DNA of 64,000 nucleotides from contig CAWEXO010000013.1 in assembly GCA_963813025.1 (NCBI GenBank), positions 320,001 to 384,000 of the forward strand, written 5' to 3'. Under the pieces are notes generated by a model. The model saw nothing but the letters and a program-made list of their open reading frames with translations. It had not been told where the DNA came from and did no database searches. The position numbers were made by a program, and so were the translations under genes. Within the stretch, counting starts at the first letter, position 1. Every line of letters begins with the position of its first letter. This stretch comes from an uncultured Verrucomicrobiae bacterium. GTDB lineage: Bacteria; Verrucomicrobiota; Verrucomicrobiia; Chthoniobacterales; JAFAMB01. This document shows positions 39,499-49,391 of this stretch, one piece after another.

Positions 39499-40644
39499 AT
39501 GATTTCTCAAATCACAACGGGACCATGCTTGTTGATTGTAGATGACGACGACTCCGTTCGAGAAGCCTTTCGTTGTATCCTCCAAGATCGATACCGGATT
39601 GTTGAAGCCTCCGGAGTGGACGAAGCATTGTCGTTGATTGATCGAGAATGTCCGGATTTGGTAACCCTCGATATGCGCATGCCCGACAAGGATGGACTAG
39701 AGGGGCTTCGGCTCATTCGCGAGCGCAGTGAGGGTTTGCCCGTAGTGATGGTTACAGGCTACGGCTCCATTGATACGGCTTGCGAAGCCCTGCGATTGGG
39801 CGCTTCAGATTATTTGGAAAAGCCTTGCGGTTACGACCAGTTAAGAACAATCGTCCGTACGCACCTTAAACCCAAACATTTTCACAGTCCTGATTCGTCG
39901 ATCGCGGAGGTCACTGGACGCCGTGACTCTCCATTGGATCGCGACCCCACTTCATTGTTGGGGAAAGCTTCAATCGCCTTCGCACATGATCTGGCCAATC
40001 CTCTTCAAGTCCTACTTATTTTAACCCGTTCCTCTACTGAGTTATTGGCGTCTGAAGATGAACTTGTTCCCGGACATGTAGAGGTCCTACGGAATAACCT
40101 GCAGCGAATCGAGCTCCTTGCCTCGTGGTGCTCGAATTTAGCGCACCAATGGAGGAGTCTTGCGGAGGCCGATGCTTTTCGCAAATTTGGCGATGGGCCG
40201 TACAGAGCGGAAGAGATTATTGAACAGGCTCTGCATTTGGTGCGCCCCTATGCCGAAATCCATCGAGTGGCGCTCCTCAAGGGTCAGATGGTTAGTTCTG
40301 CTATGGTGCATGGCGATCTCCTTCATATTCTGCGAGCCTTAGCGAATCTGATCACGAATGCTATCCATGCCAGCTCTACCCAAGGTCGTGAGGTCCGGGT
40401 CGCCCTCAATTCTGATTCGTCCAGCGTGAAGTTTAGTGTAACCGACAATGGCATCGGCATACCGGCAGCACGATTGTCTGATTTCATGCAGAATAACCCA
40501 TTCGACCGGTCTAACAGAGGGCCGGGCGGTCTTGGCTTGTTTATTGCAGATTGGATTGTGCGAAACCATGGAGGCAAGCTGCAGCTCTTCAGCGAGGTAG
40601 GCGTTGGAACAACCGCAGAGTTAATTCTTCCTTTGGCAGGCTAA
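39499..40644 (+). CDS. Hybrid response regulator-histidine kinase (REC-HisKA-HATPase)
   Basis: IVDDD, LDMRMP, AHDLANPL, NLITNA, DNGIGI, GLGLFI. Confidence 0.9.
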   Translation: MISQITTGPCLLIVDDDDSVREAFRCILQDRYRIVEASGVDEALSLIDRECPDLVTLDMRMPDKDGLEGLRLIRERSEGLPVVMVTGYGSIDTACEALRLGASDYLEKPCGYDQLRTIVRTHLKPKHFHSPDSSIAEVTGRRDSPLDRDPTSLLGKASIAFAHDLANPLQVLLILTRSSTELLASEDELVPGHVEVLRNNLQRIELLASWCSNLAHQWRSLAEADAFRKFGDGPYRAEEIIEQALHLVRPYAEIHRVALLKGQMVSSAMVHGDLLHILRALANLITNAIHASSTQGREVRVALNSDSSSVKFSVTDNGIGIPAARLSDFMQNNPFDRSNRGPGGLGLFIADWIVRNHGGKLQLFSEVGVGTTAELILPLAG

Positions 40645-40715
40645 CCACGATTTTGTAGCGTCGCTTTATGCAGTTATCAACAAAAGTATCTCAAGCGGCA
40701 GGTTGAATCGTCACT

Positions 40716-42137
40716 ATGGGTTCCGATCAAAAAGAACGTGAATCATTTTTAGTCTGTCGAAACAGTCAGCGCGTTCAAATCCGGGCGAGCATTCTCAGGC
40801 TCACCCGGTACATCGTTGCGTTCGAAGTCTATAGTCCATACAGCATTTTGCAGACTTCGGAGGTCTTGTCCGGACTTCAGATCTTTGTCAACACGCACAT
40901 GGTCTACGCCGGGCGCGCTGTCGTTCGCAGTCTTATAAATACGGGGATATATCTGGTCGCCGAAGCCGACCTAGCCGATGGTTGGCTCGATGTGGACTTA
41001 TTCTCTCCTGTGAACCAACGCGAACGCCTGCTAGCGGGGTTTGAGGAATTTCTAAATGAGTGGACCAACCTTCAACAGGTCAACGAGGATTTCAAGATTG
41101 TGGTTTCCGACCTGCAAAGCCTTTTGGGAGGATTTCGCGGATGGTTAGAACAGGTCGAACTGGGAATACGGTCGGAGCCCTCCGGCGATCATTCCGCTAT
41201 TGAGCGGCAGGTTATCTCAGATCTGCAGCCCGCGATTCTTCCTCACGTCCACAGCCTCTTTGAGCATTTTGAGGCGATCGCAGTCTCCCTCCCGGAGCAA
41301 TTGCAACCGCTCCATCAATTCTATCTTCGACGCCAACTCCATCCACTCCTCCTCTGTGCGCCTTTCGTACATCGAACGTATCAAAAGCCACTTGGATACG
41401 CGGGCGATTATGAAATGGTAAATATGATCCTAAGAAGCCCTTACGAGGGCTCCTCTGTTTTCGCCAAGCTAGTCAATACCTTTTTCTTGAGTCAGCCGCC
41501 GGCCCAGGCTCATCGCAACCGGATTACATATCTTACGGCACGAATCGTCACCGAAACAAAGCGAGTGGCTCGTCCCGGAAGGCCGGCACGCATTTTTAAT
41601 TTAGGCTGTGGGCCTGCCAAGGAAATCCAAAACTTTCTCATTTATGAGGACGTTAGCAATCTTGCCGATTTCACGCTCCTTGATTTTAATGAAGAGACTC
41701 TCCATTACACGGGTAATCTCCTCAATGAATTAAAACAAAAGTATAGCCGACGAACGTCTGTCAGTTATCTGCCGAAGTCGGTCAGCCAAATTCTTCGGGA
41801 TTCACGTCGTGCAGACAAACATTTTCTGTCCGAAAGCTACGATCTCGTCTACTGCGCGGGCTTGTTTGACTATCTCTCCGACCGAGTTTGTCGTATCATA
41901 ATGGAAATCTTCTACGATCTGGTTGCACCTGGCGGAGTGCTAATAGCTACCAACGTCGCCGCGCATAACCCGGTTCGCAACATGATGGAATATGTGGGCG
42001 CCTGGAATTTGATCTACCGTGATGCTCGTCAACTCGCTTCGCTTCGCCCTTGAAGCGGCAGGCGAGTTCGGCATCACTAGGATCCAACGTCGATGAACAT
42101 CTTCATCGAGCTGCGCAAACCCGAAGGAACTAAATAA
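40716..42137 (+). CDS. PhcB-like class I SAM-dependent methyltransferase; C-terminus disrupted by two compensating indels near 42050-42080
   Basis: KPLGYAGDYEMVN, AHRNR, NLGCGPAKE, YCAGLFDYL. The tail DPTSMNIFIELRKP continues in frame to TAA 42135-42137, abutting the next ATG. Confidence 0.8.
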
Positions 42138-47558: not shown

Positions 47559-48682
47559 CTAGTGCAGTGAGTCAGAGCCTCGTTGAGTGACTGGTTTAAT
47601 GCGATGATCGGCATTCTTATATCTCCAGCGGAAGGGTGTGGCGGTTTTGTTGTACTGCCTGATGTAGCGAATCAGCTTTCTGGAGAGGTCGGTTGTAGAA
47701 GTGAAGATTCCGCGAGCGATGACATCGCGTTGGATTTTGGAAAACCAGATCTCGACTTGATTGAGCCAACTGGAATAGGTCGGGGTGTAGTGGATCCGAA
47801 CCGTTGGATTGGCCTGGAGGAACTCGAAAACATGCTTGGTTTTATGTGCGCTCAAGTTGTCGGCGACGATGTGAATCTCTCGGCCATCGGGCTGGCTGGC
47901 GACGATCTGGCCGAGAAAGCCGACAAACTCAGCACTGGTATGCCTAGCGGTGGTCTTTCCCATAACGTCGCCGGTGCGAGTGTCGAGCGCCGCATACAGT
48001 GAGAGGGTGCCGTGACGAAAATACTCAAAGCCATGTCGTTCAGCTCGGCCGGGGGAAAGAGGCAAAACTGGGTCAAGTCGATCGAGCGCTTGGATAGCGC
48101 TCTTCTCATCGACGCAGAAGACCGCGGCGTTTACCGGTGGCTCAAGATACAAGCCAATGATATCTGCCGCCTTCTCTTCAAACTCAGGATCATCGCTGGC
48201 CATGTAACCACGCAGCCGATGAGGCTGAATGCCGAAATGGCGCCAGACACGGCTCACGCTCGACTGGCTAATGCCCAGATCTTTTGCCAGCCGATAGCTG
48301 CTCCAGTGGGTCGTACCGTCCTTGGGACCCTGACGCGTGAGTTCCAAGATACGCGCCTCGGTCTCAGCTGTACGGGTTCGGCGTGGACTACCGCGATAAC
48401 GCGAATCGAGTCCCGCCAACCGCTCCTCTTGAAAGCGCTTCTTCCACTCCCGGATATACTCATCACTGCAATCCAGCCGCTGCCGAACTTCCCGGTAAGA
48501 ATGACCTGATGCCAACATCAAAATGACCTCTGCACGTTTGACTAACTCCATCGCCAGAGACCGTTTCCGCGCCCTGCGCTTCAATTCACGCCGCTCAGGC
48601 GGCGCCAACACAATTCTGCCTAAACTCACGCCAGATAGCGTACAACATAATCGCACAACTAGTCACCGACTTATTGCACTAG
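47559..48682 (-). mobile_element. Intact IS630-family element flanked by CTAG (transposase 47559-48656)
   Basis: IR CTAGTGCAGTGAGTC / GACTTATTGCACTAG; uninterrupted DDE ORF. Confidence 0.93.
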
Positions 48683-48710
48683 AAACTGGAATGTGAAAAA
48701 GAAGGATGTG

Positions 48711-49391
48711 TCATCGAAAATCCGGTGGGAAACCGATAAAACTTTTGACCACGTTCTCTGGAACTTTACTAGCCGGGACAACGCCCATTTGGACTGCAAC
48801 TAGTGTTAAGGATGCCGCATTGTGTACGCCCAGCTTTTGCATAAGACGAGACCTGTGGTTGTCCACTGTCTTTGTTGCTACTCCGAGCAATCTGCCTATC
48901 TCCTTGTTAGATTTGCCTTCGGCGATTGATTGCATGACTTCGATCTCCCTGGCTGACAGAGCTTGCGCTGACCCGAATACTGAATGGTCGAGGGACTTGT
49001 TGAGTTTAGGCGAGAAGAAGCGCCCCCCGACGCTAACTGTACGGAGCGCAAACAACAGAATCTCCAACGGTTCTGATTTGTGAACAATACCATCTGGCTC
49101 GGCCCGGAGCGCGGCAGCCAGTACGCTTGTGTCCGACGCCCTCGTGAAGATCACGGTTCGCATTTCAGGTAATTCTCTTCGTGCTCGCAACATGACTTCG
49201 TGACCGCACAGTTGCGGCAAAAGGAGGTCGATAATAGCAACATGCGGAGAAGTCTTTTGAAAAACTCGAATCGCGTCAAGGCCCGTTCCGGCCTGGCCCA
49301 CTACTTCATACTCGGGTAAACGTTCCAGATAGCAACACAACAATTCACGTACAGCATCGTGATCATCGACTATGACAATTCTTGTTTTCAT
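48711..49391 (-). CDS. NarL/LuxR-family response regulator
   Basis: IVDDH receiver; LSAREIEV..IAEGKSNKEIG..KTVDNHRSRLMQKLG. Confidence 0.93.
   Translation of the reverse strand: MKTRIVIVDDHDAVRELLCCYLERLPEYEVVGQAGTGLDAIRVFQKTSPHVAIIDLLLPQLCGHEVMLRARRELPEMRTVIFTRASDTSVLAAALRAEPDGIVHKSEPLEILLFALRTVSVGGRFFSPKLNKSLDHSVFGSAQALSAREIEVMQSIAEGKSNKEIGRLLGVATKTVDNHRSRLMQKLGVHNAASLTLVAVQMGVVPASKVPENVVKSFIGFPPDFR

Follow-up and report, generated by a model that had tools for sequence, protein, structure and literature searches.

PhcB makes the methyl ester of 3-hydroxymyristic acid (3-OH-MAME) or that of 3-hydroxypalmitic acid (3-OH-PAME), and this is sensed by PhcS. According to the available text of PMC8578825, the receiver proteins PhcR and PhcQ carry no DNA-binding domains, and in that of PMC13320629 PhcA is described as bound and stabilised by PhcQ. 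Residues named in the accessible parts of the literature are R22 of PhcB and R154 of PhcQ (PMC6989110) and the phosphorylated histidine H230 of PhcS (PMC11960443). The phc operon is reported for Cupriavidus in the available text of PMC2864759, and for Paraburkholderia phytofirmans, in that of PMC3639386, as an operon without phcA. Here we describe a related cassette in a window of 64,000 nucleotides (contig CAWEXO010000013.1, positions 320,001 to 384,000; G000:C13:320001-384000) from an uncultured Verrucomicrobiae bacterium, whose assembly (GCA_963813025.1) has 4.4 Mb and is 80% complete. The cassette encodes a PhcB-family S-adenosylmethionine (SAM) methyltransferase, an 889-aa two-kinase membrane sensor and a 412-aa PhcR/PhcQ-type receiver, and probably represents a Phc-family synthase-sensor cassette serving a circuit with a diffusible fatty-acyl methyl ester.

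Aligned with Ralstonia PhcB over 437 columns, the methyltransferase showed 41% identity (E 6e-108), and it was the sole match in the genome; identity to the Ralstonia and Cupriavidus PhcB proteins together was 40-41%. For PhcB, PhcS and PhcQ of both genera, the best match in the genome lay inside the cassette in each case. The Ralstonia reference loci carry non-solanacearum species names and hold four genes matching the literature (PhcB of 464-470 aa with R22, PhcQ with R154, PhcS with H230), with PhcB lengths that agree with those in the available text of PMC7694676. Equivalents of the three residues were kept in the window proteins as R23 of the methyltransferase, R155 of the 412-aa protein and H657 of the sensor. 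The phcB homology proposed in a sequence-only reading of this DNA was thereby borne out, as was its suggestion of a probable Verrucomicrobium host, the best methyltransferase homologue, intact and 89% identical, being found in a genome of the same family (G010, another genus) with the source label Chthoniobacterales. No PhcB model in NCBIfam reached its cut-off for the enzyme, and none of the solved structures was related to it by sequence (best E 0.08). Many close homologues are already named as PhcB-type in JGI, where they are automatically annotated as 'extracellular factor (EF) 3-hydroxypalmitic acid methyl ester biosynthesis protein'; this name is derived from similarity and is silent on a tested product or circuit.

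The 889-aa sensor consists of a PhcS-type domain with multiple transmembrane (TM) segments, a histidine kinase (HK) domain with H220 (kinase A), a receiver (REC) with D542 and a second kinase domain with H657 (kinase B). Five hydrophobic segments were found by a crude hydropathy scan. BLAST gave two alignments of PhcS on this protein, one over the membrane domain and kinase A (25% identity) and one over kinase B (33%); the membrane domains align from the N-terminus, and H657 of kinase B aligns with H230. In the kinase trees PhcS grouped with kinase B and not with kinase A (SH-aLRT 93), and in the receiver tree the internal receiver grouped away from PhcR. Judged by these alignments and trees, the sensor is a PhcS with an extra, unrelated kinase-receiver module between the membrane domain and kinase B. 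It is not a PhcS-PhcR fusion, since the internal receiver is unrelated to PhcR and the C-terminal kinase groups with PhcS; of the phcS(R) fusion sensor first proposed for this locus, the PhcS homology and the two kinases stood and the PhcR part was ruled out. The architecture is thus TM-HK-REC-HK instead of the TM-HK of PhcS in Burkholderiales loci. PhcS kinases nested among kinase-B domains in two quick trees, and the alternative was not rejected (approximately unbiased (AU) test, p 0.44). PhcS may have been derived by deletion from a two-kinase sensor; the trees are compatible with this, the direction of module gain or loss not being fixed by them. In the methyltransferase tree as in the kinase-B tree, the neighbours of the Burkholderiales proteins were the same two Verrucomicrobiota lineages.

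The 412-aa protein was the best match of PhcQ (44% over PhcQ residues 11-154) and aligned over its full length with PhcR, in agreement with the phcQ/phcR homology suggested earlier. Its receiver, with the phospho-acceptor D61, grouped with both PhcR and PhcQ, the branching order within this group not being separated. The window therefore holds a single gene related to both, unlike the separate phcR and phcQ genes of Burkholderiales. The sequence-only reading had called the product a receiver; the receiver domain and the motifs quoted for it hold, and a degenerate kinase follows in the same protein. Of 38 members of the family, all retained the phospho-acceptor aspartate, 37 the R154 equivalent, 25 the H-box histidine and 6 the N-box asparagine, and the second G2 glycine was mostly Asn (23/38). 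The protein is probably a pseudokinase or a phosphotransfer-only protein because its ATP-binding motifs are degenerate, and it carries no DNA-binding domain. By HHalign, the 412-aa family profile matched the PhcR C-terminus at 98.7% and aligned significantly with PhcQ only over the receiver and a linker of about 55 residues (96.7%). The fact that more decayed versions of the receiver-kinase occur in other loci suggests that PhcQ stands at the end of a decay series. The distal part of PhcQ scored below 1% against all five other profiles. With a confident model of the Ralstonia PhcQ C-terminus (pLDDT 91) as query, fold searches yielded nothing significant (Z at most 5.2; lowest Foldseek E 0.047), and the full-length PhcQ model matched receivers only in the fold search. 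That the PhcQ C-terminus may be a dead kinase is a lead only, the profile and fold matches falling short of significance.

To place the cassette among its relatives, we compared three sets: Verrucomicrobiota genomes, the best 80 of 508 metagenome relatives, and the best 80 of 596 relatives in named genomes from a scan with a 40-sequence alignment; the last are nearly all Burkholderiales because the first alignment row chosen was Paraburkholderia-like. The enzyme is patchily distributed, occurring in 3 of 42 genomes of the family, in one more of the order and, at full length, in 14 of 400 genomes of the phylum. Of these 18 other genomes, 17 had the gene for the two-kinase sensor immediately after the enzyme and one had a split form there, and the order enzyme, sensor and PhcR/PhcQ-type receiver was kept in 16. 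Among the metagenome loci, the sensor followed the enzyme in 71 of the 73 that extend 300 bp or more downstream, and sensor and receiver did so in 32 of the 33 that extend 4.2 kb or more. Such an order is far beyond chance, since the sensor follows the enzyme in 18/18 genomes and 71/73 metagenome loci, and the phcB-S-Q-like arrangement recognised in the window is thus a conserved one. In the genome with the split sensor (L030:1489-4206, G343) the two ORFs were TM-kinase and receiver-kinase, and no PhcR/Q-type receiver was found in the next 15 kb. At L137:258-7204 the two-kinase sensor was present in two copies, one on either side of the methyltransferase.

Genes related to lipids recurred beside the cassette. 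A FadL-like long-chain fatty-acid channel was found in 26/80 metagenome loci, 20 of them with the gene within 450 bp upstream of the enzyme, and in 1/80 named loci; it lay within 10 kb of the enzyme in 5/18 genomes and was the sole FadL match of the genome in 4. A reducing polyketide synthase (PKS) was located directly upstream in 5/18 genomes from two genera (by Pfam in two of the five, by ketosynthase profile in the rest), and a fatty acyl-AMP ligase (FAAL)-PKS lay inside the cassette of one more genome (G390). These recurrent neighbours fit a lipid signal, as far as gene association goes. In the locus pairs L031/L032, L033/L034, L035/L036, L037/L038 and L039/L040 the upstream PKS had about 2,090 aa and three receiver genes stood downstream of the sensor. 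In G390 (L028:4344-11074) the sensor and receiver genes were separated by an opposite-strand gene pair encoding FAAL-acyl carrier protein (ACP)-ketosynthase-methyltransferase and ketoreductase-ACP. A block with an alpha/beta hydrolase, an LPG-synthase-like protein and an OprB-type porin was found near the cassette in 6-7 loci (L022:7811-11187, L024:2-3401, L129, L175, L192, L196, L201); speculatively, the hydrolase could be a signal-degrading esterase.

Alongside the homology, architecture, gene order and FadL/PKS association described above, we propose a circuit whose chemistry, direction of phosphate flow, response to cell density and output are predicted from known systems. By analogy with PhcB, the methyltransferase would use SAM to form a small diffusible fatty-acyl methyl ester, likely different in chain length or hydroxylation from 3-OH-MAME and 3-OH-PAME. 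The ester would bind the PhcS-type membrane domain and control kinase A, which would phosphorylate the internal receiver and so switch kinase B. The model for this step is LvrA/LvrB of pathogenic Leptospira. According to the available text of PMC5863495, that system combines a sensor-HK-REC-HK protein with a following REC-HK protein, without a DNA-binding domain, and the first kinase of LvrA phosphorylates its own receiver; the available texts of PMC5863495 and PMC13269768 describe the kinase of LvrB as activated by receiver phosphorylation. Compared with the window proteins, LvrA is the best NCBIfam match of the 889-aa sensor (281 bits, far below the 1200-bit cut-off), but it has a cytoplasmic PAS sensor where the window protein has a membrane domain; LvrB is an active kinase in the available text of PMC13269768, whereas the kinase core of the 412-aa protein is degenerate; and the word 'methyltransferase' is absent from the main text of the Lvr paper. 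LvrA/LvrB is therefore an architectural model only. Kinase B would then phosphorylate the 412-aa receiver. Since this protein lacks a DNA-binding domain and its ATP site is degenerate, it most likely works through contact with a partner whose gene lies elsewhere, in the way that PhcQ binds PhcA. The partner would not be PhcA, and probably not the neighbouring LuxR or RfaH-like protein.

The cassette shares with phcBSRQ/PhcA of Ralstonia, Cupriavidus and Paraburkholderia a PhcB-family enzyme followed by a PhcS-type sensor and a receiver of PhcR/PhcQ type. It differs in the extra sensor module, in its single receiver gene, in the additional REC and REC-HK genes upstream, in an enzyme from outside the Burkholderiales clade and in the absence of a detected PhcA-like gene. 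As a PhcA query we used a candidate from a Ralstonia genome, picked by position, length and N-terminus; with this putative PhcA, tblastn gave no match at E 1e-5 in the 80% complete genome. No LysR helix-turn-helix match was found on this contig, which accords with the remark that the window lacks LysR/PhcA; 8 matches lay on other contigs of the genome. By these comparisons the cassette is one that would work like Phc and is not a strict member of phcBSRQ-PhcA.

A reading without cell-to-cell signalling appears improbable to us; in it, the substrate of the enzyme would be a polyketide or a lipid of the cell interior or membrane, and the sensor would report on the state of the membrane or of metabolism. 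It gains from the signal being so far a prediction only, from the enzyme's position beyond the PhcB clade and from PKS neighbours that could serve ordinary lipid synthesis, and it is opposed by the near-fixed pairing of the enzyme with a PhcS-type membrane sensor and the frequent outer-membrane FadL, which point to a molecule crossing the envelope. Further observations count against a methyl-ester circuit at this locus. In a quick maximum-likelihood tree of 75 sequences the enzyme fell in a Verrucomicrobiota-rich subfamily separate from the PhcB clade of Burkholderiales, and its product may differ from that of Ralstonia because of this position and the identity of 40-41%; even Cupriavidus metallidurans yielded no 3-OH-PAME according to the available text of PMC2864759. 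Family membership alone does not fix the substrate, since this is a large family, with 577 clusters at E 1e-30 and PilZ-bearing members in Myxococcota and Nitrospirota. Because the FadL and PKS counts were taken from related loci, they overstate independence; both genes are absent from the locus in this genome, its FadL lying on another contig. At L125:2367-2627 and L143:991-1218 an enzyme about 80% identical and the receiver are kept while the sensor is a remnant or missing, which could be a real loss or a misassembly. Finally, the upstream single-domain receiver gene is cut by an insertion sequence (IS), and in this assembly the 3' end of the enzyme gene carries a frameshift. The latter two raise the question of whether the cassette is decaying here, the synthase being a true pseudogene and the cell at most a listener. 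Compared with G010 and G032, one base is extra near 42051 and one is missing near 42080; these two compensating indels remove the conserved last ~28 residues, and IS remnants flank the cassette. The methyltransferase of about 474 codons first proposed exists as a gene, intact homologues having 473-474 aa, but its frame here stops after 445 aa. In a tblastn survey, whose criterion may overcount broken genes, frame breaks or stops were found in 15/57 conserved genes, among them gyrA, gatA, guaA and the methyltransferase itself. The two indels are probably assembly or sequencing errors and not a true mutation because so many conserved genes of the assembly appear broken. A single read run (7% of words) gave zero cover at 42040-42090. 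Decay seems unlikely to us in view of the many broken genes of the assembly and of the three other cassette genes, which are intact and 78-89% identical to those of relatives.

Doubtful as well is the view that the EPS locus next to the cassette is under the control of the quorum-sensing circuit, with the NarL/LuxR and RfaH-like proteins nearby as its output. The EPS locus adjoins the cassette also in G010, where homologous rfaH, sugar transferase, gfo, hexapeptide transferase, degT and wzc genes lie on the other side of it; by this synteny the EPS link is old within part of the family. A metagenome locus with an RfaH-like gene and nucleotide-sugar genes upstream (L200) is one of two with an RfaH-like match among the 34 of at least 10 kb. 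On a conjugative Paraburkholderia graminis plasmid (NZ_CP024936.1; L007:14962-31338), phcB-phcS, a receiver-only phcR and phcQ stand directly upstream of the pel EPS operon. Missing linkage would not exclude such control, as the Ralstonia Phc system acts on EPS in trans in the available text of PMC13320629. However, only 2/19 genomes, this one and G010, and 0/15 outside the family had Wza (PF02563) or the priming sugar transferase (PF02397) at 20 kb or less from the enzyme, so that the conservation of EPS linkage across relatives that had been expected fails. G458, whose enzyme is 85% identical, has neither gene near the cassette on its 81-kb contig, and in three well-assembled genomes the nearest lay about 120, 225 and 750 kb off; several contigs of relatives are short (that of G032 begins at the enzyme), which limits these linkage tests. 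With the window proteins as queries, no Wza, Wzc or priming-transferase match was obtained in the 34 metagenome loci of at least 10 kb or in the 80 named loci. The NarL gene is convergent with the cassette, lies behind IS remnants and is not beside it in the family relatives G010, G032 and G458, as far as their contigs reach. This speaks against the proposed output through NarL/LuxR and RfaH, and judged by gene neighbourhood the NarL/LuxR gene is probably not a conserved cassette part; one further metagenome lineage has a NarL-type gene upstream of its cassette. The EPS link, which had set the window apart, is local and not to be relied on.

The literature search, to which most subscription journals were outside reach, found no Phc study beyond Burkholderiales. 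A conserved Verrucomicrobiota version would provide a testable cell-to-cell signal for this phylum, which is abundant and mostly uncultured, and its PKS-linked members would widen the chemistry of methyl-ester signals. The domain comparison offers a testable view of the kinship of PhcS, PhcR and PhcQ, a part of the Ralstonia pathway called unresolved in the literature. Taken jointly, many soil and freshwater Verrucomicrobiota would signal by diffusible, possibly volatile fatty-acyl methyl esters through an older, more complex Phc circuit. Ralstonia PhcS would be this sensor minus its internal kinase-receiver module and PhcQ the decay end point with the 412-aa protein as intermediate; within this family the EPS locus beside the cassette would be driven by the circuit, and the signals could overlap with those of Burkholderiales in soil. 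This combined reading is tentative, and as a whole we hold it to be somewhat unlikely.

All ORFs in the gene list of the sequence-only reading were present, and Pfam agreed with its domains (REC-HK, methyltransferase, TM-HK-REC-HK, receiver, LuxR, RfaH-like and Wza/Wzc). It had omitted the IS66 and IS630 remnants (46294-48656) that separate the cassette from the LuxR gene. Coordinates are given in Table 1.

Table 1. Features of the window around the cassette (positions are those of the window).
Feature	Position	Strand	Basis and remarks
IS630 fragment replacing receiver 5' part	38787-39194		
Single-domain receiver, 3' remnant	39228..39413	+	blastn 75.5% to G010 gene end, single open frame
REC-HK accessory receiver-kinase, 381 aa	39499..40644	+	Pfam; motifs D58, H163, N287, G boxes
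PhcB-family SAM methyltransferase	40716..42134	+	Open 445 aa, stop 42051-42053; last ~28 codons disrupted
TM-HK-REC-HK membrane sensor, 889 aa	42138..44807	+	Pfam, BLAST to PhcS, trees, motifs
PhcR/PhcQ-family receiver and degenerate kinase, 412 aa	44791..46029	+	BLAST, REC tree, HHalign
IS66 remnant	46294-47300	.	Pfam TnpB_IS66; not part of the system
IS630-type transposase	47559-48656	-	Pfam DDE_3; not part of the system
NarL/LuxR response regulator	48711..49391	-	Pfam; convergent with cassette
IS-like remnant	49413-49823		Sequence, outside Pfam scan; beyond LuxR gene
RfaH-like	50596-51198		Pfam
Wzc/Wza/beta-barrel	51659-55873	-	Pfam
EPS locus: RfaH-like, Wzc, Wza, beta-barrel, priming sugar transferase, sugar-modifying enzymes, second Wzc-like	50596..63154	.	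Pfam, NCBIfam, synteny

The sensor and 412-aa receiver genes overlap by 17 bp. The REC-HK gene stood directly upstream of the enzyme also in G010, G458 and G056 and in 6/44 metagenome loci with at least 1.6 kb upstream. It is not a PhcR orthologue, as the REC and HK trees placed it outside the PhcR/PhcQ and PhcS groups. G010 and G458 have an intact copy (145-150 aa), upstream of the cassette, of the single-domain receiver gene of which a remnant is left in the window. A partial second rfaH-like copy was located just 5' of the priming sugar transferase in the window (56058-56372) and at L008:8925-9200. Window positions 1-36400 contained many transposases (IS110, IS630 and integrase-core types) amid ABC transporter and pqiAB genes, and several ORFs in this part looked fragmented.

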